The notes under the pieces were generated by a model that saw only the letters and a list, made by a program, of their open reading frames with translations, was not told the DNA's origin and did no database searches. Position numbers and translations under genes: made by a program. Below, one piece after another: positions 969-15,768 of a stretch of 25,229 nt of DNA. The stretch covers positions 1 to 25,229 of the forward strand of contig JBNMNB010000103.1 of NCBI GenBank assembly GCA_051270635.1, given 5' to 3'. The stretch is from Verrucomicrobiales bacterium (lineage in GTDB: Bacteria > Verrucomicrobiota > Verrucomicrobiia > Verrucomicrobiales > DEV007). Every line of letters begins with the position of its first letter. The first letter of the stretch is position 1.

Positions 969-3478
<2,510 letters not shown>

Positions 3479-3573
3479 TACAGCGTCTCGGAGGTCTCAG
3501 CGGTGAGGGGATTAGGAGATTTCGTTGACTGTGAGGGCATCGGTTTCCTGGGCTTGTCATCTCCAGGGCATTC

Positions 3574-4677
3574 GTGTCACTCTGCGGTGCGGTGGCTGAT
3601 GATCTCTCCAACTCTCACGATTCCTTATCCGGCGGTGACTCACCCAGCGAAGTCAGCGATGACTATTGGATCGATCTCGCCAGGCACCCACACGATGCCT
3701 TTTTTAAGGAAATCTTCACCAATACGGAAGATGCCACCGCGTTTTTTCAATCTCACCTGCCTCCTGATGTAGTGGAATCTTGCGAATGGAGCACTCTCAA
3801 AGTGTTGCCTGGATCATTCGTGAAAAGTACGTTGCAGCAAGCGCATTCAGATCTTCTGTTCTCTGTGCAGAGCCGATCAAGAAATCCCTCTATAAGTGGG
3901 AATTCGGAGACTCGCGAATTTTTGCTTTATCTGTTGTTCGAGCACCAGAGCAATGTCGATCCCATCATGCCACTCCGGCTTCTCAGCTACATGGTACAGA
4001 TTTTTTCCGCTCATCATGAGCGACACGGCCTGCCTTTGCCACCAGTGATTGGATTCGTATTGCACCAGGGGCCGGACAAGTGGACGGTTTCGCAGCACTT
4101 TGATCAGCTATTCGATTTGCCGGATGATCCTGTAATGAAGCAGGCGCTGCTCCCGTTTCTGCCGAATTTTCAGCACGGACTTCTTGATCTAACTCAGTGC
4201 GATCCCGGGCAGGATGAGGATGTTCGTTCGGTGCGTATCGTCTTGCAACTCATGAAGCTTGCGCGCGAAAAGCGGCTTCTGGAGTTTTTTGACTGGCTCG
4301 TTATGGCCTGTCAATCATTCCTTGAGGATTTGCCATCCAGGCGGCTCGAAACTCTTCTACTCTACGCCCTGCACGCTGACAGCAATCTTGACATTGAACA
4401 GCTCGCCCGTAATGTTGAGAGCAGCAAACAACTGCAAAAACTCACTATGTCCGTAGCTGAAAAACTAAAAGCCGAGGGGAAAGCCGAAGGTAAGATCGAA
4501 GGGAAAACCGAAGGAAAGATCGAAGGTTTGTGGATTGGGCGTATTCAATTGCTTCAGACGTTGATGGGAAAAGAGGCCTCTACGGACGAAGACTTAACTG
4601 CACAGTCCATAGAGGAGCTTCAGGAAATGTTTGAGGTATTGCAGGTATCGTATGACGCGACAGTCAAGGGCAAGTAA
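3574..4677 (+). CDS. Rpn/YhgA-like PD-(D/E)xK recombination-promoting nuclease / putative transposase (Transposase_31 family) with a repetitive C-terminal tail
   Basis: N-terminal HPHDAFFKEIF matches the hallmark PHDxxFKxxF motif of Rpn family proteins. The C-terminus carries AEGKAEGKIEGKTEGKIEG repeats of the kind found in the variable tails of this family. The true start may lie downstream of 3574, because the N-terminal extension before the PHD motif is unusually long. Confidence 0.7.
   Translation: MSLCGAVADDLSNSHDSLSGGDSPSEVSDDYWIDLARHPHDAFFKEIFTNTEDATAFFQSHLPPDVVESCEWSTLKVLPGSFVKSTLQQAHSDLLFSVQSRSRNPSISGNSETREFLLYLLFEHQSNVDPIMPLRLLSYMVQIFSAHHERHGLPLPPVIGFVLHQGPDKWTVSQHFDQLFDLPDDPVMKQALLPFLPNFQHGLLDLTQCDPGQDEDVRSVRIVLQLMKLAREKRLLEFFDWLVMACQSFLEDLPSRRLETLLLYALHADSNLDIEQLARNVESSKQLQKLTMSVAEKLKAEGKAEGKIEGKTEGKIEGLWIGRIQLLQTLMGKEASTDEDLTAQSIEELQEMFEVLQVSYDATVKGK
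4473..4530 (+). repeat. Imperfect tandem 12-nt repeat (GAAGGnAAGATC-like) encoding (E-G-K-x)n in the Rpn C-terminal tail
   Basis: The sequence gccgaggggaaagccgaaggtaagatcgaagggaaaaccgaaggaaagatcgaaggt can be read directly in the window. It encodes AEGKAEGKIEGKTEGKIEG. Confidence 0.6.
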
Positions 4678-4685
4678 GCCCAAGG

Positions 4686-5312
4686 CTATTTCAATTGAAC
4701 AGCGCAGCCAGGGCAGTGCCGGGGATGGAACAGTTCCCCGAGAAATTTATCGCATGCCGGGCAGTGCCACCAAGTGTGGAGCGCGACCATGGCCATAAAT
4801 AAGAATGGGAGATTAATGAGAAGAAGGATGGAGAGGGAAAAGTGATCGACTGAGAAAGAAAGAGCTACCGAAGCGAGATTACTGAAATGGAACGCTAGTG
4901 CCAGTCTATGTTTCCATTTATTGCTCGCATGTCGGGCGTAGATCATATCTTGCTCGGCCTGCGACGTAACAGTGAATTTCTTTGCGCCGACCTGCAGTTG
5001 CTCCCCACATTGTGGGCAGAACTTGGGCTTAGAAATCTTGCCAATGTATTGGTGACATTGAGGGCAACTTGCCAGTCGCCGAGCGATGATTGCAAATCCA
5101 AGAATCGCCAGGGCTAGTCCTGCCATCAAGGGCCAAATGTTCGTTCCTTGATTGTTAGCGACAAGGAAAGTGAAGAATCCTCCTGCGACCCACAACAGGA
5201 GTAGAAAGCAAACTGCCAATACCCACTGCCGAAATCTCGATTTTCGCAATGCCTCTACATTGGCGAGAATACGCGCATCTTCGGCCGGATCAGATGTCGC
5301 GTTGATTGACAT
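4686..5312 (-). CDS. Membrane protein with tandem duplicated [2-TM + CxxC-x12-CxxC zinc-ribbon] modules; last gene of the flotillin/AAA cassette
   Basis: The protein is 208 aa. It contains two pairs of hydrophobic helices, each followed by a Cys4 ribbon with identical spacing: CPQC-x12-CPQC and CPAC-x12-CPGC. The start codon region overlaps the stop codon of the upstream giant gene by 23 nt (5290-5312) on the same strand, which suggests translational coupling. The gene is convergent with the Rpn gene, 8 nt apart. Confidence 0.6.
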   Translation of the reverse strand: MSINATSDPAEDARILANVEALRKSRFRQWVLAVCFLLLLWVAGGFFTFLVANNQGTNIWPLMAGLALAILGFAIIARRLASCPQCHQYIGKISKPKFCPQCGEQLQVGAKKFTVTSQAEQDMIYARHASNKWKHRLALAFHFSNLASVALSFSVDHFSLSILLLINLPFLFMAMVALHTWWHCPACDKFLGELFHPRHCPGCAVQLK

Positions 5313-8300
5313 CGGATTGGATGTCCACAGGAAGATCTTCGATTGTTTGCGGTTCTCGAGGAGCGCTGCCTTCGTGCACGGGGACGACTTTGATCTCCAC
5401 GTCTACCGGGACAGAGCGAAGATTTGCGATGATAGTCTCGAGTTTTTCAATAGTGACATCGGCCAGGGTGGCCGGTGCCCGTTGATGTGCGGCGGCATCA
5501 CTGAGAACGGTGCCAATTTGCTTCAAGTTCTCGGAGAATAGGCTTAGCTGACCGACAACTCTGGAGACGGGATCATTGTCGCCACCACCGCCGAGAATTT
5601 GATTTCGGCCGAAAGTTTCTTTGATCGAATTCCAGCGCGCAGTCCCAGTTTCATCCAGTGTGCTTTCGAGTTCCTTGAATTTGAGAAGGTTGGATTCGGC
5701 GCCAGTTGTCAGCGTTTGCGATTCGTTTTCGTAGTGGTCGACGATCACGCCCTCGACTTCCTCTGCGGTCATCATCGCGAGGATTTTCTCGGCGATGCGG
5801 TTCATGTTCCGATACGAACCCTGTAGTTTGAATGCAGGCTCGGTGCGGTAATTATCCTCCATCGCGGCAGATCGTATGTATTCAAGATTCACCCGCAGGA
5901 TGGTGTCGCGCACGCGCATCAGCTTCTCGACGATCGAGACCAATTCGTCGATTTCTTCCATGGCGTAGTTGCCCTCGAAATCGATACTTTCACGTGAACC
6001 GCTATCGGCAATTTTCATGATCGCGTAGACGTCCTGCTGGCTGCGGCTGGCGAGCTTGCTAAGCACTGGATTCGATGTGAGTGAGTTCTCGATATAGGAA
6101 TCTTTGAAGACACTGCCGTGACCGCCGATGATATCGCCGAGGTTGTAAGTGTCGGCGCGGTTCGCCAGCATGTCGGGAATCTGGAACTTGCCACCGCTCT
6201 CTGTGTAGGGATTACCAGCCATGACAACGGCGACTTTCTTGCCACGCAGGTCGTAGGTGCGCGGCTTGCCATTGTAGACGCCTTCGATCTTGCGCTGGGC
6301 GTCACACAGCGAGATAAATTTTTGCAAAAATTCTGGGTTACAGTGCTGGATATCATCCAGGTAGATCATCACATTGTCTCCCATCTCCAGCGAGAGATTC
6401 AACTTGTTCACTTCCTCACGCGCGCTGGCATTTGGGGCTTCGTCAGGATCGAGGGAGGTGACGTGGTGGCCAATGGCCGGGCCATTGATCTTCATAAAGG
6501 TGATGCCGAGCCGGTTGGCGACATACTCCATGAGCGTGGTTTTACCATAGCCAGGCGGGGAGATGAGCAAAAGCATGCCCATGCGATCGGTACGCGTGTT
6601 GACTCCGGCGGTTCCCAGTTGTTTCGCAAGGTTATCGCCGATCATCGGCAGATAGACGGAATCGAGAAGCCGATTGCGAACAAACGAAGACATGACGCGC
6701 GGCTTGAACTCGTCGAGACGCAGTGATGCGCGTCTATTCTCGAGCAATTCGCCCTTCAAGTGACCATAGGATTCGAACCTGGGCACGGATACTTCGTCGA
6801 AGTCACGCATCTTCTCCAGGAAGCCGTTGTAGTGCAGCGTGTAGGTGCCGCCTTCAGTCAATGCGTGCGATCCTGACATTCCTTCAATGTCTGCACGAGT
6901 GGCGATCTCGATGACGTCGTTGGAGCGGAATCCGCCTCGGAGTAAGTGCGCCGCGGCCTCATGCAGGACATCTTCGGAAATCGTGTTACTTTCGCCAGCC
7001 GTGAATCCGCGCAGCCAGTCGAGCATGATTTCGAAGCGCCCAGTTGGATCAGTTTCCAGAGCGCCCCAGGCTTCGTCGAATTTTTTTGCCAGGCGTTTTC
7101 CCGTGAGTGCCGTTTTGAAATGGTTGACGGCTTCTGCGGCTTCGAGAGAGACCACGGGATTGCCAGGCGACGTGAACTGGTGAAACAAGTAACGGGCTGC
7201 AGAACCAGTAATCGCCGGGCGGAAGGGGAGCCGTGGATGATTCTGCAGGAATGCCTCAATCACTTCGGTAAACTCACTGATACTAGCGTGATCATTGGTC
7301 GCTGTTGGGAATGATTCCCGCACCAGCCTGAACGATCGCAGTTTCGCCTCCAGCGTGTGCTTTGCTTCAATGTCATCCCATTGTTCCCAGAAGAGAAGTC
7401 CACAGGCGCGTGTGCCAGGAGCATAGCGCAGTAATCCGGCAGCCAGGTGAATCGGCAACAGGCTATCAAGCAGCAGTGCGCAGTCACGATCGTGAACTCC
7501 CTTGGTGTAGCCTTCGGAATAGCGAGGCCCCATGAATCGCTGAATGGACTCCAGCTGCTCGCTCTCCGGCTGTGCCGCGAAGTCGTCTACTGAGTCGGTG
7601 CCAAGCAATGGATCGCTGCCGGATTCCAGTGCGCGTAGAATCCGCCATGCTAGAAATTCAACACGATAAACGGCCTCATTTTCTGATACAGTTTCCTGCT
7701 CCCACACTTCATGGGTAGCGAGGAATGCGGGATCGGTGATCTTTTCGAAGAAATTCGTTCCTGCCAGGTGAAACAACATCGTATCATCACGGGGCACGAT
7801 CGACAGTTCCAGTTCCTGCGTATTGGTGGCGAATCGATGGTTGCCAAGCCGGATGACATTAGTGCCATCTTCGAACAATTCCTGTCTGTCTTTCAGCTGG
7901 CGGACAGCATCTTCACGCAGCGTCTTGAGGCGCGTCTGGACATCACCGGCTTTCACCGAATCTCCCAGTTCCTCGAGTTGCACGATAATGTTGCGCACCT
8001 TTTCGATCATCAAATCGGATGCGAGATACCCGTTGATGTCGTTGATGGTTTTGAAACCTTCCAGCCGATGACGAATACCGTTGAGCACGCGATCGGCGGA
8101 CTTTGCCAAAGTTCCTGCCCGGCGATTGCGGGCTTCCAGCAGCGACTGCTTGCGCGATTCGAAGGCGCTATAGACTTCTTCGCGCTTGGTCGTGAGTTGT
8201 TCGACGTATTCTTCGAACTCGCTGAACCTGCCTTCCAACTCTTCGAGCTGGATCATCGTCTTGGTAAGGAATTCGTCGCACTTCTCAGGTGCGCTGCAGA

Positions 8301-10425
8301 GATCCAGATAATTGATGACCGATTGGTTGAGAAGTTTCAACTGAGCGGTGAACTGAGCAGCGCCTTCCGTGCGTGACAGATTCTTCTTTCGATTCTTCAG
8401 TTCTACTTTAACCTGATTCAGAGTCGAATAGATGGAAGAAACGTCGTCAATAATCTTCGTCGTATGAGTGGCATCCTCGATCTTGAGGTTGCTGACGATG
8501 TCGATGAGCATTTCTAACTCAGCGCCCGCAGCATCCAGTTCCTTTTGCGTTTCAGTGGCCTCAGCAGCCTTGTTGATATCAGGAATGCGTTCCTGCTGGA
8601 CCGCGACCTTTTGCCGGTAGGGATCCAAGGCTTCGTCACGCAGCAGGAACTCGACACAGAGGTTCGACTCACGCTCACTTGCATCCTGGCTCTGTTCTTC
8701 GAGTGAATCGACCAACTTGAGATCAACGTAGCGCAGGTCGCGGAGCGAAATGATTTCGCCGCGCACAGTGCGGAGTTCGGCCAAGTTGTGCACGAACCCG
8801 AGGATATCATCGGGCCGTGTGTGCTCAACGGTTTTCAGGATTTTCGCGGTCTTATCGCGCACCCGGGCAGTCTCTTCGCGGGTGTTCTTGCGCACACGCT
8901 GGACTTTGTCGAATTCGTCGATCGCGGCCTGTGCGGCGCGATTGATCTCTGTCAGTGCACTCTTGAGGTCATGCGCTTCGTTGCGACCGGCCCAGAAGTA
9001 GGCGTCGCTGATGTCGCCGGTGATCTTGACTAAATCGACATAGAGATCGGCATAGCTGTCGTCTTTTCCGAGAAGAGTGAGGACTTGCTGGCACTCGGCC
9101 ATGCAGCGCACGATCTCTGCATTGCCCACCTTGTAGAGAAACGAATCCTGTTGCGTATCAGGCGCGAACGATTCTTCAATGTACGGCGTCTGCCATACTT
9201 GCAGCGCGTGATGCTTTTGCGGTTGTTCCTCATCGCGGAAATAAATCAGCTCGCCATTGGCGAACAGGCTGTAACCATTGCAGATGATCGGCGTCGACAC
9301 TGAACGCGCGATCAAATTGTAAGGCATAAGTATGTAGTCGCCGCTGATGCGATGGTAGAATACGTAGAGGAAATCCTCTCCGTTAGACGATGCGATGCGA
9401 CGGTCGAAGTACATATTCGAAAGGTCGTTTTCGAAGAGTTTGAATTCGCCGCTCTGCAGGTAGTAGCCGTTGGAGAAAATGATTCCGTGATCGTCGGGCA
9501 GGAGGACACACGAATGGCGAATGGAATCGATCCGCCGCACCTCGCGCGTCTTTTCATTGAAGACAAGAATACGTTCGTCCTTTTCCTGATACGGTTTGAT
9601 GTTGAGGATAATCAGGCTGCCGACGAAAGCGTAGAAAATTTCCGCATCGTCGAGCGTCTGGTCGACATGGTCAACCGGCTCGGTGTAGATGCCTTCGCCA
9701 GACTCCGTGTTGTCCTCCAGCTTGACCGTTAGATCACCACCGATGGTTTCGACGAAGATGCGGTCTTCAATTGAAATGTGTGGATGATCGCCCACGCGCT
9801 GCATGTCGCGGTGTGCGCGTTTCCATTCGAACTCACGCTGTGGTGGGAATGCGTATTCGTGATCGAAACGGTTGCCGAGATACTCAAGTGTTCCGTTCCC
9901 GTCGATGAGGAATTTGAACGTCTTGCGATCGTCGATCGACTTTCCGACTTGGAACGCCATGTAAAGGTTCGGCCCGATGACCATGAACTTTACGAAGACC
10001 GTCTCCCGATAGAACTTGTAGAGATATTTAAAATCTTCAGCGAAGGCGCTGTCTTCGACAATCGTATCGAACGGGCACTCGTGGAATGTATGCGACTGCG
10101 GATCAAACGAGTAGCCAGCAAAGACATCACTGATGTCAGTTGTCGACTTTAAGCCAAGCTGGACATTATATGCGAACAGAAACCGATTGGCTCCGATCGA
10201 GATCATGTCGCGCGGTGTGCAATTATTCTGCGTGGTGACGCGATCAGTGGCAATCAGCTGAGCTTCAATTGCTCCGAAAACGTCTTGGCGATCGGTATTG
10301 AGTTGATTCAGGCGCTGACGCAGATTCGTGCCGTGCTTCTCCATCCGCGCACGGATGATCTCATAGGCACCGCCTTCCAGCTGATCCTGCTGCTTAGGTG
10401 GTTCTTCCAGGATGACTTCAGACAT
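5290..10425 (-). CDS. Giant (1711 aa) multidomain protein with a single MoxR/AAA_5-type AAA+ ATPase core, a long central coiled coil, and N- and C-terminal domains of unknown function
   Basis: This is a single uninterrupted ORF. Walker A is LLLISPPGYGKTTL at about nt 6535-6575 (residue ~1292). Walker B plus the MoxR-like DEINRA-equivalent is VMIYLDDIQHCNPEFLQKF at about nt 6340-6372. Sensor-1 and the arginine-bearing segment VAVVMAGNPYTESGGKFQIPDMLANRADTYNL lie at about nt 6121-6215. This segment aligns with the MoxR/AAA_5 consensus fVlATqNPiEqEGTYpLPEAqLDRF. Residues ~480-840 (about nt 7900-9000) are heptad-rich coiled coil. A possible GGAGA ribosome-binding site sits 9 nt upstream of ATG 10425. 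Confidence 0.85.
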   Translation of the reverse strand: MSEVILEEPPKQQDQLEGGAYEIIRARMEKHGTNLRQRLNQLNTDRQDVFGAIEAQLIATDRVTTQNNCTPRDMISIGANRFLFAYNVQLGLKSTTDISDVFAGYSFDPQSHTFHECPFDTIVEDSAFAEDFKYLYKFYRETVFVKFMVIGPNLYMAFQVGKSIDDRKTFKFLIDGNGTLEYLGNRFDHEYAFPPQREFEWKRAHRDMQRVGDHPHISIEDRIFVETIGGDLTVKLEDNTESGEGIYTEPVDHVDQTLDDAEIFYAFVGSLIILNIKPYQEKDERILVFNEKTREVRRIDSIRHSCVLLPDDHGIIFSNGYYLQSGEFKLFENDLSNMYFDRRIASSNGEDFLYVFYHRISGDYILMPYNLIARSVSTPIICNGYSLFANGELIYFRDEEQPQKHHALQVWQTPYIEESFAPDTQQDSFLYKVGNAEIVRCMAECQQVLTLLGKDDSYADLYVDLVKITGDISDAYFWAGRNEAHDLKSALTEINRAAQAAIDEFDKVQRVRKNTREETARVRDKTAKILKTVEHTRPDDILGFVHNLAELRTVRGEIISLRDLRYVDLKLVDSLEEQSQDASERESNLCVEFLLRDEALDPYRQKVAVQQERIPDINKAAEATETQKELDAAGAELEMLIDIVSNLKIEDATHTTKIIDDVSSIYSTLNQVKVELKNRKKNLSRTEGAAQFTAQLKLLNQSVINYLDLCSAPEKCDEFLTKTMIQLEELEGRFSEFEEYVEQLTTKREEVYSAFESRKQSLLEARNRRAGTLAKSADRVLNGIRHRLEGFKTINDINGYLASDLMIEKVRNIIVQLEELGDSVKAGDVQTRLKTLREDAVRQLKDRQELFEDGTNVIRLGNHRFATNTQELELSIVPRDDTMLFHLAGTNFFEKITDPAFLATHEVWEQETVSENEAVYRVEFLAWRILRALESGSDPLLGTDSVDDFAAQPESEQLESIQRFMGPRYSEGYTKGVHDRDCALLLDSLLPIHLAAGLLRYAPGTRACGLLFWEQWDDIEAKHTLEAKLRSFRLVRESFPTATNDHASISEFTEVIEAFLQNHPRLPFRPAITGSAARYLFHQFTSPGNPVVSLEAAEAVNHFKTALTGKRLAKKFDEAWGALETDPTGRFEIMLDWLRGFTAGESNTISEDVLHEAAAHLLRGGFRSNDVIEIATRADIEGMSGSHALTEGGTYTLHYNGFLEKMRDFDEVSVPRFESYGHLKGELLENRRASLRLDEFKPRVMSSFVRNRLLDSVYLPMIGDNLAKQLGTAGVNTRTDRMGMLLLISPPGYGKTTLMEYVANRLGITFMKINGPAIGHHVTSLDPDEAPNASAREEVNKLNLSLEMGDNVMIYLDDIQHCNPEFLQKFISLCDAQRKIEGVYNGKPRTYDLRGKKVAVVMAGNPYTESGGKFQIPDMLANRADTYNLGDIIGGHGSVFKDSYIENSLTSNPVLSKLASRSQQDVYAIMKIADSGSRESIDFEGNYAMEEIDELVSIVEKLMRVRDTILRVNLEYIRSAAMEDNYRTEPAFKLQGSYRNMNRIAEKILAMMTAEEVEGVIVDHYENESQTLTTGAESNLLKFKELESTLDETGTARWNSIKETFGRNQILGGGGDNDPVSRVVGQLSLFSENLKQIGTVLSDAAAHQRAPATLADVTIEKLETIIANLRSVPVDVEIKVVPVHEGSAPREPQTIEDLPVDIQSDVNQRDI

Positions 10426-10552
10426 TCTTTAATTTCTCCGGTGCAGTGGCTTCATTGAACGACGGACGTTCGATATCGGTATCCGCATTCTCTTGTGTGA
10501 CGGTGGTCGATTTCCCCAGTTGTTTATGGGAGGATGACTACCCGTCTCTTGA

Positions 10553-12643
10553 TCACTTTTTAGTGACTGCATCGATGATTTCGCCAGCATTGGTTCCGGC
10601 CACGCCGAATCGTTCTGCTGCACCACGTAGTCCGCGTAGCTGCGCCGCATCGTCATCGCCAGCACTGCCGATCATTTGCCCCAGCAAGGCGGACACGGTC
10701 AGGTTTTTGAGATCCTCACTGGTGATGCCGAACTGATCGATCCAATTCGAGAACTGGGAACGAAAATAGTCAGGATCGCCGTTGAAGAACGTCTCTTTGA
10801 CATCCTGCAGGGCACGACTGTTGCCAATCATGCGATCAACCGATTTGCCCGTAGAAATGGCACCGGTGATCTTATCGAAGAATGCGATGTCGCCACCGAC
10901 AATGTCGATTTTCGCCGTGCGCAGGGCTTCGCCCACCACACTTGCCTGCTCGGCCGCGATGTCGCGATGCACATTGATCTGTGCCAGATCGACCTGCTTC
11001 TCTTTGTCGAGACGCAGTTTGAATTCTTCGTGCGACTGACCAGCTTCGTTAAAGAGCTTCATCGCTGCTGCTTTCTTGTCGATGCCTTCTGCCTCGGCCA
11101 TTGCCTTGAGACGTGCGACTTCCGCTTCGATCGAACCCTGCTTCTCGGCAGCCTCGGCCTTAGCGATCATTACCTGGGCTTCACCCAAACCAATGGCGGC
11201 TGATTCTGCAGCGACACCTTCAGCGAGCGACTTCTTCGCAGCGGCCTGCTTGGTAGAGGCTTCCTGCTCGGCTTCGGAAGCAATGAGGATTTCTTCAGCA
11301 TGCAGCTCAGCAGATTTTTTCGAAGCTTCAGCAGCTTTGACGCGCTCATAGAGCAACTGATCAGCGTGCAATTGAGCAGCTTCCTTGTCGGCTTCCGCTT
11401 GTTTGAGCACTTTCACCAGCACTTCCTGTGCATCCTTTTCGGCAAGGGTTATCGCGACCTGCTTCTCACGGTCGGCACCTGCGAACGCTTCCGTATCGAG
11501 GATTTTCTGCTGCTCGATCACCACTGTCTTCTCGACTGCGACACGTTCTTTGATGACGTCCTGAATGTTCTTCTTCTCGATCTCGACTGCTTTATCTCGC
11601 TCGATCCCTTTCAGCGATGTCAAGCGATCGCGCTCGATCACCTCCAGCATGCGATCGCGCTCGACCCGCTCAAGCTCGACCGCATCAGTGCGATCTTTGT
11701 TGCGCTCAGCGACCAGCACTTGACGGAATTTATTCTGCTCGGCGACTTCGATTTCTTCCTCAGCAGCAATGCGTGCCTGCTCAGATCTCTGACGCTGTTC
11801 CTGGCGAACTTTTTCGGCCTCGGCCTGCTCGCGTGACTGCACGGTTTCGATTTCACGGCGCTGTTTCGCTTCTGCTTCAGCCAGTTGCCGCTCCAATTCG
11901 AGTATCGCTTCCCTTGTCTCTACGTCTTGTTGTTTGATCACGCGTTCCTTGTCTCGCTGAATCTGGTTCGCCAACTTGGCCTGTGCTGCCGTGCGGTCAG
12001 TGATCTTCTTAATACCTTCTGCATCGAGAATATTGTCAGGATCCAGGGAATCGAGCGGTGTTTGCTCCAGGTGGTCGATCGAGGCATCGTCGAGAATGAA
12101 TCCGTTCAAGTTGGTGCCAATGATCTTGATGATCTCGTCGCGGAAGGTGTCGCGCTCGTCGTAAAGTTCAACGAATTCGAATCGTTTACCGACAGTCTTC
12201 AGGGCCTCGGAAAATTTGGCATCGAACAAGGCTTGAATCTCCTTCTCGTTGGATGCGCGGTCACAGCCGATCAATTGGGCCACATGCTCGACGTCCTTGG
12301 CTGTTTTATTAACTCGCACGAAGAAGACGACCTTGATATCGGCTCGCATGTTATCTTTACAGATCAGTCCATTGTTGGCGCTGCGATCGATGATGATGCG
12401 CTTGACGGAGATGTCCATGATCTCAACACGGTGAATGATTGGAAAAACGAACATGCCGGAGAAATTGACACGCGTTCCTCCCATTCCATTTCTGATGAGC
12501 GCACGCCCTTGATCGACCTTGCGCCAGCAGCGCATTGCGATCACCGCAATGAAAAGGACAAAACCAATCAAGAGCGGGATCAGAAACATTCCCAATCCCT
12601 TAAAGAGTTCTGTCCCTGCTTGTGCCAACAATGATTCATTCAT
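10553..12643 (-). CDS. Flotillin-like SPFH/Band-7 protein (YqiK/FloT-like) with extended EA-rich coiled coil
   Basis: The protein has an N-terminal TM helix (FLIPLLIGFVLFIAVIAM) and an SPFH domain (ICKDNMRADIKVVFFVRV...). It then has a long charged coiled coil with flotillin-type EA repeats (AEAEAKQRREIETVQSREQAEAEKVRQEQRQR...; KAEAAEKQGSIEAEVARLKAMAEAEG). At 696 aa it is longer than E. coli YqiK or B. subtilis FloT. Confidence 0.9.
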   Translation of the reverse strand: MNESLLAQAGTELFKGLGMFLIPLLIGFVLFIAVIAMRCWRKVDQGRALIRNGMGGTRVNFSGMFVFPIIHRVEIMDISVKRIIIDRSANNGLICKDNMRADIKVVFFVRVNKTAKDVEHVAQLIGCDRASNEKEIQALFDAKFSEALKTVGKRFEFVELYDERDTFRDEIIKIIGTNLNGFILDDASIDHLEQTPLDSLDPDNILDAEGIKKITDRTAAQAKLANQIQRDKERVIKQQDVETREAILELERQLAEAEAKQRREIETVQSREQAEAEKVRQEQRQRSEQARIAAEEEIEVAEQNKFRQVLVAERNKDRTDAVELERVERDRMLEVIERDRLTSLKGIERDKAVEIEKKNIQDVIKERVAVEKTVVIEQQKILDTEAFAGADREKQVAITLAEKDAQEVLVKVLKQAEADKEAAQLHADQLLYERVKAAEASKKSAELHAEEILIASEAEQEASTKQAAAKKSLAEGVAAESAAIGLGEAQVMIAKAEAAEKQGSIEAEVARLKAMAEAEGIDKKAAAMKLFNEAGQSHEEFKLRLDKEKQVDLAQINVHRDIAAEQASVVGEALRTAKIDIVGGDIAFFDKITGAISTGKSVDRMIGNSRALQDVKETFFNGDPDYFRSQFSNWIDQFGITSEDLKNLTVSALLGQMIGSAGDDDAAQLRGLRGAAERFGVAGTNAGEIIDAVTKK

Positions 12644-12694
12644 GATAGTTTCGATATGACCGTCTTCCGATGGTGTGGGTTAGTGGTAGTTGTT

Positions 12695-13336
12695 TTAAAG
12701 TGCTCGGACGAAATAGGCGCCGGTCTTTTCGTCTTCATCAATGACGAGACACTCGTCACCTTTCTTGAGCCGTGCATTGCCTTCGCGAACTCGGACATTG
12801 ATGAGTAGGGGAGCCCCGCGCATTTCGATTTCCACTTGCCCCAGGTCCGTGGAAACACTGCCGCTGCGGACGATGCCGGTGCGGCCAATGATGGGTTCTT
12901 GAGTTTCTTTGTCCGCGTCTTTCATTTTCTGCAAGACTCTGGCCATGGGCGCAGTGACCGCCTTGGCGATGAATAAGCTCAATACGAAACTGGCAAAGCC
13001 GACCAGCACCGCAGCGACAACACTGCCAGCTCCAGTGAAGAAGAAATTTCCAACAATTGACAGAACCCACATGCTGATAGCCATGATGCTGATCACGATC
13101 ATAACGGGCACTTGGTCAACGTTCACAAATCTCAACAAGGCCGCGAAAATGCTTCCGCCGCCGTGGCCGGAGAGGTCCCCATCTGCATCGATTTCCGTGT
13201 CGGCATCCAGATCGAATTCAAATCCATCACCGAAAACTCCGATACTGGCGACGATCCAGTAGATGACTACCAAGCATAGCAACACCGTCATCGGCAGATT
13301 ATACCAGGCAGTTGCTTCGTGGAATAGTTCAGTCAT
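12695..13336 (-). CDS. NfeD-like / YqiJ-like (DUF1449) inner-membrane protein with C-terminal OB-fold; the flotillin partner protein
   Basis: The layout matches YqiJ: an N-terminal TM helix, an acidic D/H-rich loop (FDLDADTEIDADGDLSGHGGGS), two more TM helices, and a C-terminal beta-rich OB-like segment (GRTGIVRSGSVSTDLGQVEIEMRGAPLLINVRVREGNARLKKGDECLV). It is immediately upstream of the flotillin gene on the same strand, 51 nt away. Confidence 0.7.
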   Translation of the reverse strand: MTELFHEATAWYNLPMTVLLCLVVIYWIVASIGVFGDGFEFDLDADTEIDADGDLSGHGGGSIFAALLRFVNVDQVPVMIVISIMAISMWVLSIVGNFFFTGAGSVVAAVLVGFASFVLSLFIAKAVTAPMARVLQKMKDADKETQEPIIGRTGIVRSGSVSTDLGQVEIEMRGAPLLINVRVREGNARLKKGDECLVIDEDEKTGAYFVRAL

Positions 13337-13514
13337 GTTTAAATTCTGGGAATGATCGCTGCCAACTCGCTACGATTGAGAGATACTTCCGTAATTGAGC
13401 GTAGCTTACACATTCGCACCAGTGAGGCCATTATAATAGGTTAGATGCTTTGTACCGAGTAGACACGATTTTTCGATACCCAAGGCGAAGAATAATGGCT
13501 AAGGTCGACCACAG
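13337..13514. promoter_or_regulatory. Divergent intergenic region between the cassette and the HTH gene. It holds a palindromic ATTATAAT -10-like element and an inverted/direct repeat motif.
   Basis: TATAAT can be read on both strands at about 13430-13437. At about 13357-13406 the motif cGCTACG-ATTGAG-N13-ATTGAG-CGTAGC is visible: a 6-bp inverted repeat flanking a direct repeat. Position is consistent with promoters for both the nfeD-like gene (minus strand) and the HTH gene (plus strand). Confidence 0.35.
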
Positions 13515-14000
13515 ATGAGCGAATCCCACGAAGTATTAAAAGAGGCGTTTGAGAAAACCAGTCCTAAGGAAATTGCCGCTGAGTTGGCTGTTTCTTTATC
13601 GCTTGTCTATAAATGGGCACAGCCGAACACGGAATTGGGGAGCGGATCTCGTAATCCGCTCGATCGTGTGCATGAGCTGATGCGCTTGACCCAGGATCCG
13701 CACATCATCCAGTGGCTGTGTCAGCAGGCAGGCGGGTACTTTGTGCGAAACCCTGAAAGCAACTGCAAAGAAGGTTTCGAGGTCGTGCCGGCGACCAATG
13801 AGATCGTCCAGCAGTTCGCCGATCTCCTTTCGATCATCACCAAGGCATCACTGGATAATACGATTACGCCCGCCGAATCGGCACAGATCCGCAAATGCTG
13901 GGATGAGCTCAAGGCCTATACCGAAGGATTTGTCACTTGCTGTGAAGAGGGCGATTTTGAGAATATCGACCTGAAGCGGGCAGCGCACTCCTCCAGTTGA
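13515..14000 (+). CDS. Small helix-turn-helix DNA-binding regulatory protein (phage CII-like style HTH), transcribed divergently from the cassette
   Basis: The protein is 161 aa. The HTH-like segment is PKEIAAELAVSLSLVYKWAQP. The C-terminal part is acidic and Cys-containing (CWDELKAYTEGFVTCCEEGDFE). I cannot assign a family confidently. Confidence 0.55.
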   Translation: MSESHEVLKEAFEKTSPKEIAAELAVSLSLVYKWAQPNTELGSGSRNPLDRVHELMRLTQDPHIIQWLCQQAGGYFVRNPESNCKEGFEVVPATNEIVQQFADLLSIITKASLDNTITPAESAQIRKCWDELKAYTEGFVTCCEEGDFENIDLKRAAHSSS

Positions 14001-14020: not shown

Positions 14021-14830
14021 CTAAGCAGACAGCTCGCTGTTTTCGGTCATCCAGTCCTTCAACAAAGGAAGGGCATCAAGCAACTCAGCGCGCAGAACAT
14101 CGCGTAGTTCCTGGCTCAGGATATCGCGAGAATCAGTATTCGCAGGCGTCTGCTCGAGCTGGATACGCAATCCAAGAACGACGGGTGATCTTCCAGCGCG
14201 AGTCAAAGCTTCGCTTATTTCATCCTTGTGCGGCTCTAACAGGCGCTTTGGCACTTTAAAGATTCGCGCAACTTGCACGTAGGCTTCCGCCACTTTTCCT
14301 AAAGGGACATGCAGCCCAGCTTCAATGAGGTGCTCAAGAAATGGACGCACTTGAGTGTCTTGCTCAAACATGGCATCATGCAGTGCGCGTTGGTAGCGTT
14401 GACCAGCTTTCCGGTAAGCTTCCCGTGCTTCCACCACTTTATCGTTAGACCATACTTGGCGCAGTGCGCGACGCAGTTGGCGTTGCTCGGCCATGGAAAG
14501 CTTATCCAGCTCGGTGCGCAGGACTTCCCGCCGCCGGGCTAGTGAACTGGTGGTCGTGGACTGAGCCTCGATCTGAGAAGCGCCGGGCAGTTCGCTGTAT
14601 TCGGGCAAGCCGCCCAGTTCAGGAACGCTGGAAAGATCTGGCATATCATTGCCACCTGGCATGTCGCCTGGCATATCGGGCATTCCTGAGCCGAATGGCG
14701 GAGGCATGCTGTCGTCCAGCGGGTTCTGAGCATAGGCCAAAGTCAGACATCCGCCTGCTGCTAAAGTCAGCAGGGCAAGCGGCAATGGCAGACGGGGAGT
14801 GGAGGAAAGGAGTGGAATCCAGAGTTGCAC
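14021..14830 (-). CDS. Putative periplasmic protein with Met/Pro-rich linker and LTxxQ-like (Spy/CpxP-style) helical C-terminal region
   Basis: The ORF is open to 14986, but a signal-peptide-like segment (LPLPLALLTLAAGGCLTLAYA-QNP) appears only about 55 codons in. The longer version would overlap the SD-supported start of the divergent gene at 14932. I therefore propose the GTG start at 14830 (VQLWIPLL...), with the start remaining uncertain. Motifs include MPDMPGDMPGGNDMPD and LSMAEQRQLRRALRQ. Confidence 0.45.
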   Translation of the reverse strand: MQLWIPLLSSTPRLPLPLALLTLAAGGCLTLAYAQNPLDDSMPPPFGSGMPDMPGDMPGGNDMPDLSSVPELGGLPEYSELPGASQIEAQSTTTSSLARRREVLRTELDKLSMAEQRQLRRALRQVWSNDKVVEAREAYRKAGQRYQRALHDAMFEQDTQVRPFLEHLIEAGLHVPLGKVAEAYVQVARIFKVPKRLLEPHKDEISEALTRAGRSPVVLGLRIQLEQTPANTDSRDILSQELRDVLRAELLDALPLLKDWMTENSELSA

Positions 14831-14931
14831 ACGGGATAGAACCACAGGATTGCGAAACTGTCGCGGTCGATCTGAATTTGGTTGAATCTTGCGTTCAACG
14901 TCCACTAAGGCTAGGGGAGGGATACCTACAT

Positions 14932-15768
14932 ATGTCAGATTCAAATGTGCCAGCCGACTTGAGTCAGGACGACTCACCAGAATCACCTGCCGAAACCTTC
15001 GGCAGCAGTGCTGAAGTGAAGGCGGATTCCTCGCCGCCAGCCAAGAAGTCGAAAGAGAATCCGTTGATGAACATTTTGATCAATGTTCTGATTCCTGTAG
15101 TGGCACTCAGTGCTTTAAGTAAGGACGGTGGTAAACCTTGGCACATTGGCCCGCTGTGGGGGATGATCGTAGCCGTCACATTTCCAGTGGTTTATGGAAT
15201 CTGGGACTTGATTCGCAGTCGCAAAGTCAACTTCTTCTCGGTAGTTGGGATCATCGGAGTTCTGTTGACTGGAGGAATCACGCTTTATGTATGGAACGCT
15301 GACGGGACTGTGAAAGAGAGTGCGGCTTTCCTTTTTGCCATAAAAGAGGCGACGATCCCGATTGTGTTCGGAATCCTCATCTTGGGTTCGCACTTCACCG
15401 GCAAGCCCCTGATGCGGTTGTTTCTATACAATCCTGATTTGTTTGACGTCGGCAGGATTGAGAAGGCGATTGCCAAGCGCAATGAGGAGACCGACTATCA
15501 AAAGGCGCTGTTGAAAACGACCTTCATCATGGCTGGATCATTTTTCTTGAGCGCCTGTTTGAACTACGGGCTGGCGATGTATTTCTTGAAAGGAGCAGAT
15601 AGTACCAAAGAAGCATACAATGCCGCGATTGCAAAACTGACCGGCTGGGGATATCTGGTCATCGGCCTTCCCTGCATGATCATTTGGTTTATTGCCGGCT
15701 GGTTACTGGTGCGTCAGTTGAGGAAGCTGACCGGCCTGGAGTTTGAAGATCTGACTGTTCCTCGCTGA
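14932..15768 (+). CDS. Multi-pass inner-membrane protein (about 6-7 TM), family unassigned
   Basis: ATG 14932 is preceded by GGAGG 12 nt upstream. The acidic N-terminus is followed by several hydrophobic helices (ILINVLIPVVALSAL; IGPLWGMIVAVTFPVVYGIW; FFSVVGIIGVLLTGGITLYVW; ...). The upstream part of the ORF (14464-14931) is antisense to the neighbouring gene and is treated as non-coding. Confidence 0.6.
   Translation: MSDSNVPADLSQDDSPESPAETFGSSAEVKADSSPPAKKSKENPLMNILINVLIPVVALSALSKDGGKPWHIGPLWGMIVAVTFPVVYGIWDLIRSRKVNFFSVVGIIGVLLTGGITLYVWNADGTVKESAAFLFAIKEATIPIVFGILILGSHFTGKPLMRLFLYNPDLFDVGRIEKAIAKRNEETDYQKALLKTTFIMAGSFFLSACLNYGLAMYFLKGADSTKEAYNAAIAKLTGWGYLVIGLPCMIIWFIAGWLLVRQLRKLTGLEFEDLTVPR

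Follow-up and report, generated by a model that had tools for sequence, protein, structure and literature searches.

The DNA analysed here, referred to as the window, is an entire contig of 25,229 bp from a Verrucomicrobiales MAG. Its upstream run of argJ, kdsB and pyrG is borne out by Pfam and ends with pyrG at position 3478, after which lies a full-length Rpn/YhgA-like nuclease gene (rpnL; 3574..4677, forward strand, as are all features within it). This open reading frame starts with GTG, an in-frame GTG at 3592 being the only alternative, stops with TAA (4675-4677) and encodes 367 aa; its translation is a 100% match to a deposited protein, named 'putative transposase YdaD' in the database. 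The first 28 residues (3574..3657) form a Ser/Asp-rich extension that is predicted to be disordered and is absent from most homologues, which align from about residue 33, and the AF2 model of the full-length protein, with a mean pLDDT of 86.9, falls below 50 over residues 1-22. The Transposase_31/PD-(D/E)XK-type nuclease domain (PF04754) covers residues 39-248 (3688..4317). Further downstream, a putative internal translation-initiation region, A-rich and without a Shine-Dalgarno (SD) sequence (4417..4446), precedes an in-frame ATG at 4447-4449, the codon of Met292, from which 76 codons lead to the stop, exactly as the sequence-only reading had pointed out; this nested in-frame ORF (4447..4677) is the predicted rpnS, a putative intragenic antitoxin. 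Inside it, TRF, a repeat search and the translation delimit five tandem units of 12 nt, or four residues (KAEG KAEG KIEG KTEG KIEG; 4468..4527). The gene converges on a Zn-ribbon ORF (4686..5312, reverse strand, stop at 4686-4688), which is the last gene of a DUF3686/AAA cassette and a neighbour outside the Rpn module; the 8-nt distance between the two stops that had been claimed earlier was confirmed (4678..4685), and no terminator-like hairpin was found in this spacer.

Assignment to the Rpn family is supported by two models that score above their cutoffs, namely the Pfam model PF04754 (Transposase_31/YhgA-like; E=2.8e-43, 148.3 bits against a cutoff of 21) and the Rpn model TIGR01784 (59.6 bits against 52.1). 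The PHDAFFKEIF motif occupies residues 39-48. E. coli RpnA shares 24% identity with the protein (BLASTP, E=1e-18), and in this alignment its core residues D11, D63, E82, Q84 and R94, mutants of which show lost or altered activity (PMC5350276), correspond to D41 (codon 3694-3696), D93 (3850-3852), E123 (3940-3942), Q125 (3946-3948) and R135 (3976-3978). Across an alignment of 118 sequences, D93, E123, H124, Q125 and R135 never vary, and the conservation of D41 is 90% or higher. With family models above their cutoffs and the five RpnA core residues kept, the identification as an Rpn-family PD-(D/E)XK protein made from the sequence is supported. The equivalog models PRK09857 (RpnA) and PRK09956 were matched with 55.7 and 74.8 bits, below their cutoffs of 583, and the former score indicates that the gene is not an RpnA orthologue; orthology to any of the named E. 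coli paralogues (RpnA-E) is thus not supported. A Foldseek comparison of the full-length AF2 model with the PDB gave no significant match, and a PDB sequence search with the full-length protein did not have RpnAS among its matches.

The database names would make the gene an insertion-sequence transposase marking a mobile element that imported the neighbouring DNA. Such a role is suggested by the Pfam name Transposase_31 and by a partial match to PRK09956, the 'ISNCY family transposase', as well as by the location of the gene at a synteny break and by the presence of several homologue copies on some contigs. However, the PRK09956 score lies far below its cutoff, and neither terminal inverted repeats nor target duplications were found around the gene or around the 3.5-14 kb segment that follows pyrG, where bracketing repeats did not exceed chance-size matches. 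Moreover, Zhong et al. did not obtain evidence that rpn genes transpose autonomously, and autonomous transposases of the PD-(D/E)XK type are not known (PMC10400941). A transposase identity is thus scarcely credible.

The cassette adjoining rpn extends over about 9 kb and encodes Zn-ribbon, DUF3686-AAA, 696-aa and YqiJ-like proteins, and a CII-like regulator is located at 13515-14000. The earlier label 'flotillin' for the 696-aa neighbour was not confirmed, as comparison with Pfam, NCBIfam, PADLOC and PDB sequences gave no match for this protein; for DUF3686, a literature search found no paper. Rpn and this cassette could have been acquired horizontally as a single defence island that Rpn delimits, a view in agreement with the tight convergent junction, with the CII-like regulator and with the reported enrichment of rpn genes close to defence genes (PMC10400941). 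It also agrees with the lack of the 3.5-14.0 kb segment next to pyrG in the closest genomes (L001 and L002) and in the g321-g434-g733 flank of another relative (L163), a lack that fits an island yet is not specific. Comparison of the flanking synteny bore out one half of the proposal, in that synteny does end directly after pyrG; nevertheless, this break is a generic one, the gene 3' of pyrG being different in all 11 of the Verrucomicrobiales genomes, and the two flanks are adjacent in no relative, an empty site joining pyrG to the far flank being found in none of those compared. None of the genes that lie downstream in the window occurs in the pyrG flank of 80 genomes, and the far-flank gene g733 has two relatives only, with 63-65% identity and a different context. 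GC content (0.50-0.56), GC3 (0.53-0.64) and RSCU/codon usage are uniform throughout, without the deviation across the segment that might have been expected of foreign DNA, and scans found no tRNA, Rfam family, integrase or att-like repeat as a boundary. Similarly, PADLOC, applied to Rpn and six neighbours, returned nothing but a non-significant AAA match (best E=0.006) and no recognised defence neighbours, and neither cassette genes nor pyrG occur near Rpn homologues in any of 80 loci. Given the generic break, the even composition, the lack of tRNA, Rfam or repeat boundaries and the missing Rpn-cassette pairing, the placement of the gene does not stand as a sign that the cassette was horizontally acquired. 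The island-boundary idea is a weak one, and a common defence island is quite unlikely. On the favoured reading, rpn is an accessory gene in its own right, insert-like and bordering the kdsB-pyrG block, with no functional tie to the cassette.

A different link would be that the recombination-promoting, RecA-independent activity of Rpn itself gave rise to the junction when it captured the 9-kb DUF3686/AAA cassette beside pyrG. We regard this as highly improbable. If true, rpn genes would both mark and generate the boundaries of variable regions, and orphan rpnS genes would be footprints of such events, acting as cross-immunity antitoxins.

The tail of the Rpn protein provides more specific indications. 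Consistent with the C-terminal tandem repeats claimed from the sequence, which are confirmed as five K-x-E-G units, TRF reports at 4468-4527 a period of 12 nt with 3.6 copies (score 58) and a longer period of 24 nt with 2.2 copies (90% matches, score 87). The units follow a GX3 periodicity, lie within the first, long tail helix and combine one hydrophobic/variable residue with charged residues and Gly, in agreement with the published unit type. They start 8-10 residues past the internal Met, and the published rule is that four-residue repeats begin 8-20 residues past it (Zhong et al., 2023; PMC10400941). Among 166 homologues the number of units ranges from 1 to 13 and always changes by four residues per step, and the spacing is divisible by 4 in each of the 117 homologues that could be anchored. 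Among pairs whose N-domains share at least 85% identity, the unit count differs in 203 of 287, including a pair with 100% identical N-domains (8 and 6 units) and another with 99.6% identity (7 and 5 units). The tail would accordingly merit the description hypervariable that it had been given, at the level of the clade rather than of this locus, since the closest relatives of the window gene are at best 54-55% identical to it.

Additionally, the tail is found as a gene in its own right. Free-standing tail ORFs that begin at the homologous Met adjoin full-length rpn genes at three loci of relatives (L131, L138 and L139), orphan tail genes are present at two (L091 and L165), and some free-standing tail genes sit mid-way along long contigs. 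A tail-profile search yielded, among its best 150 cluster representatives, 46 short proteins (<=100 aa) starting at the homologous Met. Because tail-only genes begin at this Met, the tail is a self-sufficient coding unit. The window itself has no stand-alone tail copy. Of the short 'stand-alone' proteins in the database, some may have arisen as gene-calling artefacts on contigs that are fragmentary. In related contigs, orphan rpnS modules comprise the tail together with about 75 nt of upstream sequence.

The tail profile aligns with E. coli RpnAS from Met1 to Met1 over 46 columns (hhalign probability 87%, E=4e-6). In the AF2 prediction, a long helix runs across Met292 and the repeats and is followed by two further helices; in the model of the tail, the three span residues 3-39, 47-51 and 55-74. 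The RpnAS structure (7TH0) was recovered neither in a PDB sequence search with the tail profile nor by Foldseek, which found no significant PDB match for the tail model. The window tail has no match to PF14261 (DUF4351) at E<=10, and a set of 35 tails (the window and 34 homologous ones) has none at E<=1, which places this tail type outside the Pfam model. Matches to the Pfam model Yae1_N in 10 of 35 tails are sub-threshold, remaining below the gathering score, and reflect the periodicity.

Met292 itself is invariant in all 118 aligned sequences, which are about 50% identical, and is one of only 28 invariant columns of an alignment whose mean column identity is 55%, a constancy beyond what chance would give. 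BLASTP aligns it with M244 of E. coli RpnA, the verified internal start whose mutation abolished RpnAS (PMC10400941). The same conservation could be retained in a gene with one product only, in which the tail is merely a C-terminal dimerisation domain, Met292 is kept structurally and no small protein is made. Indeed, Met292 is part of a conserved MSVAEKL motif, in which A295, E296, K297 and L298 likewise show conservation of 90% or more, and structural constraint by itself could suffice to retain it. Moreover, neither an SD sequence nor anti-SD pairing was found upstream of ATG 4447, and no convincing promoter precedes it: a promoter scan of 3300-5400 gave counts at or below the shuffled expectation, the single promoter-like site (4289-4318) being at chance level. 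A terminator scan of the same interval likewise remained at or below the shuffled expectation. However, most genes of this contig also lack an SD, which makes SD-less starts the norm here and the missing SD at ATG 4447 uninformative. In addition, internal initiation at the homologous Met has been proven for E. coli RpnA (PMC10400941), and this Met is also the position at which the tail-only genes begin, some of them amid long contigs. A single-product gene is therefore unlikely.

As to the initiation region, positions -20 to -1 of ATG 4447 contain 50% A, and the site has a predicted accessibility of z=+1.3 in the window, in a poorly structured region that is more open than the remainder of the mRNA. 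Among 47 homologues the internal start shows a mean accessibility of +1.4, with 98% of values above 0, statistics that are inflated by the relatedness of the sequences. Both the A-richness and the accessibility at 4447 might be by-products of the K/E/N-rich peptide encoded there.

Collectively, the alignment of Met292 with M244, the homology of the tail to RpnAS and the stand-alone tail genes starting at the equivalent Met favor, by comparison, the internal-start antitoxin that had been suggested from the sequence. The intragenic-antitoxin reading is thus well supported by sequence comparison, and we consider it probable (roughly 0.7) that this one gene yields both products of an RpnL/RpnS-type toxin-antitoxin module. 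In such a module, the 367-aa RpnL would be the Rpn/YhgA-family member, a DNA endonuclease of the PD-(D/E)XK type whose catalytic core is complete, and the 76-aa RpnS would be a second product made in the same frame from ATG 4447 (Met292). A long helix bearing the five K-x-E-G (GX3) units and, after it, two shorter helices would make up RpnS, and this stretch would also form the C-terminal end of RpnL. On the model of E. coli RpnA, RpnS may pair with the C-terminal segment of RpnL and thereby keep the nuclease from acting; the count of four-residue units would set the register and, in this way, determine which RpnS neutralises which RpnL. Release of RpnS, e.g., upon phage infection, could free the nuclease to damage DNA, possibly resulting in an abortive-infection-like defence. 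We infer internal translation, toxicity, neutralisation and a defence role in this organism on these comparative grounds.

Under the two-product reading, the database name 'putative transposase' would give way to that of a two-product toxin-antitoxin/nuclease module. The traits defined in E. coli, i.e., internal initiation at the equivalent Met, a four-residue repeat ruler and stand-alone antitoxins, would extend across a large, uncultured verrucomicrobial clade that includes genomes hardly using Shine-Dalgarno sequences, supporting the generality of genes-within-genes antitoxins. They also provide an annotation rule for rpnS, namely M-x-x-A-E-K-L-x-x-x-G followed by xxxG units. No new question is opened by this rpn locus.

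Its closest counterpart is RpnA (YhgA) of E. coli K-12, which comprises the RpnAL nuclease and the intragenic antitoxin RpnAS (Kingston, 2017, PMC5350276; Zhong et al., 2023, PMC10400941; RpnAS = PDB 7TH0). Both proteins belong to the same Pfam family and have equivalent core residues, their internal Met residues are homologous and lie in the common motif M(T/S)(I/V)AE(R/K)L(R/K)xEG, and their tails, aligned from Met1, both consist of a long first helix followed by shorter ones. On the other hand, identity is only 24% and the equivalog model does not indicate orthology; the K-12 tail has 49 aa and no repeat expansion, whereas that of the window has five units; and the window protein differs further in a third helix that is longer by about 22 residues and in about 30 disordered residues added at its N-terminus. 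RpnA also has an SD-like site at the K240/E241 codons, which was mutated in published work, whereas the window gene has no such site.

Periodic helices of this kind have a parallel in the Yae1/Lto1 deca-GX3 proteins, in which consecutive helical GX3 units are reported by Paul et al. (2015) to mediate the specific pairing of two proteins. This is drawn as an analogy only, with no claim of homology, and the biology, eukaryotic Fe-S protein maturation, is unrelated. E. coli RpnC and the plasmid-encoded RpnP2 carry four-residue repeats of matching unit type in the first tail helix, in numbers that vary among strains. In RpnC, the repeat number sets RpnL-RpnS specificity, according to an experiment in which KGIE was inserted, and RpnP2 protects against T-even phages; repeat-matched specificity and defence were thus measured in those systems, whereas the window gene is known from the sequence of an uncultured Verrucomicrobiales host. 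The tail genes found downstream of rpn or orphaned in relatives are similar to the rpnE-ypaA arrangement (RpnESs). In contrast to stand-alone RpnS proteins of the DUF4351/PF14261 type, the window tail has no separate copy and is not described by that model. Taken together, it is well supported that the window gene is another, ordinary example of the E. coli arrangement described in 2023.

The window spans an entire contig (25,229 bp) of a Verrucomicrobiales MAG. Its ORF at 3574-4677 (+) follows argJ (7-945), kdsB (969-1865) and pyrG (1862-3478), and is identical to a deposited 367-aa protein carrying the database name 'putative transposase YdaD'. The protein matches PF04754 (Transposase_31, YhgA-like; E=2.8e-43, residues 39-248) and exceeds the curated threshold for TIGR01784 ('Rpn family recombination-promoting nuclease/putative transposase'). 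Against the equivalog models of E. coli RpnA and 'ISNCY transposase' it scores 55.7 and 74.8 bits, far under the cutoff of 583 in both cases; it thus belongs to the family without being orthologous to any E. coli paralogue. A corrected annotation of the gene is worthwhile. The following details of the sequence-only reading are borne out: the argJ-kdsB-pyrG run ending at 3478 (Pfam), the PHDAFFKEIF motif (residues 39-48), the repeat-bearing C-terminus (KAEG KAEG KIEG KTEG KIEG at 4468-4527), the in-frame internal ATG at 4447, 76 codons before the stop, and the 8-nt gap between the rpn stop and that of the convergent Zn-ribbon ORF (4686-5312). TRF resolves the repeats as period 12 with 3.6 copies and as period 24 with 2.2 copies (90% matches).

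By BLASTP, the protein is 24% identical to E. coli K-12 RpnA (E=1e-18; reference sequence taken from NC_000913), and its D41, D93, E123, Q125 and R135 align with RpnA D11, D63, E82, Q84 and R94. In E. coli, mutating these residues eliminated or changed every RpnA phenotype (Kingston et al., 2017, PMC5350276). Across 118 aligned sequences, the nearest relatives in the database at 47-56% identity to the window protein, positions D93, E123, H124, Q125 and R135 never vary, and conservation of D41 reaches at least 90%. At the level of sequence, both the family assignment and the catalytic core are demonstrated.

Zhong et al. (2023, PMC10400941) described two products of rpn genes: RpnL, the full-length and toxic nuclease, and RpnS, a small antitoxin made from an internal start. 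In their account, the four-residue repeats of RpnS begin 8-20 residues past the initiating Met, within a long first helix, and differ in number among strains, thereby setting RpnL-RpnS specificity. The codon at 4447 corresponds to Met292, which aligns with M244 of RpnA, the start whose mutation abolishes RpnAS (PMC10400941), within a common motif (MSVAEKLKAEG in the window, MTIAERLRQEG in E. coli RpnA). Met292 is invariant in 118/118 sequences, one of only 28 invariant columns. hhalign places a profile built from 35 tails (the segments from this Met onward) on the 49-aa E. coli RpnAS, Met1 on Met1 (probability 87%, E=4e-6, 46 columns), with a gap where the tail has its extra repeats. In each of the 117 homologues with both anchors, the residue spacing between MSVAEKL and a downstream anchor of the type G-x-W-I-G-K-I-Q is divisible by four, and the number of four-residue (GX3) units ranges from 1 to 13 (n=166 homologues). 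Unit number is unequal in 203 of 287 pairs with N-domains at least 85% identical, for example 8 versus 6 units with 100% identical N-domains, and 7 versus 5 with 99.6%. In predicted structures a single long helix spans Met292 together with the repeats (full-protein residues 285-330; tail residues 3-39), followed in the tail by helices at 47-51 and 55-74. PF14261/DUF4351 did not match the tail, and searches by sequence and by fold both missed the RpnAS crystal structure 7TH0; sub-threshold matches of 10 of the 35 tails to Yae1_N, a deca-GX3 motif, are read as common GX3 periodicity and not as homology. Taken together, the alignments establish a homologous internal Met and hypervariability of the repeats in the clade. 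Very long arrays also occur in some homologues, such as (RMEG)x7 against x2 in a near relative (loci L090/L100 versus L106), and (RSEG)x7, (REEG)x6 and (EARG)x6-7 (L093; L108; L129/L143), indicating how far four-residue expansion can go in this clade.

Conservation of Met292 could instead have structural reasons only. The strongest counter to this explanation is the existence of tail-only genes starting at the homologous Met. In six-frame translations of 80 metagenomic loci, HMM searches revealed such ORFs in L138 (1823-2047), L139 (6992-7177, plus a degenerate third copy), L131 (6999-7223) and L091/L092 (6067-6294). The L138 ORF lies directly downstream of a full-length rpn and has its neighbor's unit number, and the L091/L092 orphan lies upstream of the full-length gene and has 4 units versus its neighbor's 5; RpnS can also be a separate downstream gene (Zhong et al., 2023). 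Additionally, the tail profile has 1,551 matches at E<=0.001 among 1.84 billion cluster representatives; among the best 150 of these, 76 are <=100 aa and 46 begin precisely at the M-x-x-A-x-x-L motif. Some short entries could be gene-calling artefacts. One representative (P0126, 76 aa) was followed to DNA, where it occupies the middle of a 48-kb contig and recurs on a contig of a second sample; upstream lie a stop codon and only ~25 codons of rpn-like sequence, and a ParE toxin gene adjoins. This genomic evidence shows the tail to be an autonomous coding unit. Orphan RpnS-like genes (L165/L166, 3001-3231; L091/L092) retain ~25 codons of rpn sequence before the internal Met, without the nuclease domain; one of them is the neighbor of a ParE toxin gene on contigs of two samples.

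No Shine-Dalgarno (SD) sequence precedes ATG 4447; this says little for or against an internal start, since most genes of the contig, pyrG included, also lack one. The sole sigma-70-like match, at 4289-4318, is within chance expectation. The 20 nt before 4447 are 50% A, the highest among 16 start sites examined, and predicted accessibility of positions -20 to +10 exceeds that of the rest of the mRNA (z=+1.3; mean +1.4 and 98% positive in 47 non-identical homologues). Since the sequences share ancestry and encode a K/E/N-rich peptide at this point, such features are only compatible with an internal start and no proof of it. Most confidently placed starts on the contig (pyrG, the YqiJ-like gene, g733, sod and others) have no SD and often A-rich leaders, which suggests largely SD-independent initiation in this organism.

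The sequence-only reading had also cast rpn as a possible island boundary, with possible horizontal acquisition of the adjoining region. In the two closest genomes (L001, L002; pyrG 90% identical), the genes past argJ-kdsB-pyrG are a convergent cyclophilin gene and one for a TonB-dependent receptor, and 0 of 16 window downstream genes occur within 10 kb; synteny therefore stops at the pyrG stop. This break is real but generic: the first gene past pyrG is a different one in almost all of the 11 Verrucomicrobiales genomes examined (cyclophilin, pilin-like N_methyl proteins, bPH_2, DUF4838, BaxI, a polyvalent-protein kinase and unknowns past kdsB-pyrG), and the break thus marks where a small conserved block ends. 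On the far flank, the ORFs g321-g434-g733 (from ~14.0 kb) are syntenic in one relative, L163, at 59-73% identity, where a XerC-like recombinase takes the place of the cassette upstream. Both relatives' flanks therefore lack the 3.5-14.0 kb stretch, a pattern that would fit a variable segment; the joined flanks, pyrG next to the ~14.0 kb side, were found in no genome. Composition is unremarkable throughout (GC 0.50-0.56, GC3 0.53-0.64, uniform codon usage), island tests found no tRNA, Rfam family or bracketing direct or inverted repeat, and neither cassette genes nor pyrG lie beside Rpn homologues at any of 80 loci. With these further island tests negative, the boundary proposal is not supported, and we conclude that rpn is an independent accessory gene whose adjacency to the cassette has no demonstrated meaning. 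L163 homology covers only residues 118-321 and 157-434 of the mechanically listed ORFs at 14021-14986 (-) and 14464-15768 (+), which overlap by 523 nt, so the true genes are probably non-overlapping, of ~205 and 279 aa.

The cassette itself (4686-14000) comprises four co-directional minus-strand genes, encoding the Zn-ribbon protein (208 aa), a 1711-aa DUF3686 + DUF7902 protein with a C-terminal AAA domain (23-nt overlap with the Zn-ribbon ORF), a 696-aa protein and a YqiJ_N-like membrane protein, adjoined by a divergent CII-like HTH gene (Phage_CP76; 13515-14000). The 696-aa protein is unmatched in Pfam, NCBIfam, PADLOC and PDB, and its earlier 'flotillin' label was not confirmed. PADLOC returned nothing significant for the cassette genes, and a literature search on DUF3686 found no paper; the cassette is possibly an uncharacterised system. 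Rpn matched no PADLOC model, and no recognised defence genes were found among its neighbors. A further Rpn homologue, on a 283-kb contig (L162, 1183-6671), has a context unrelated to the window's: it adjoins a DnaE2-type polymerase gene and two upstream unannotated genes, an arrangement reminiscent of the imuA-imuB-dnaE2 mutagenesis cassette and probably coincidental.

We favor, with a probability of about 0.7, the reading of this locus as an RpnL/RpnS toxin-antitoxin module, in which the 76-aa product of the gene's own 3' end would restrain an intact nuclease, with the five GX3 units serving as a putative pairing ruler. Translation from 4447, toxicity, neutralisation and any defence role would follow by analogy with E. 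coli, from which we infer them. As far as primary sequence can tell, all the elements described by Zhong et al. (2023) are present here, and the locus is a new example, unsurprising to a specialist, of a kind already described in 2023.
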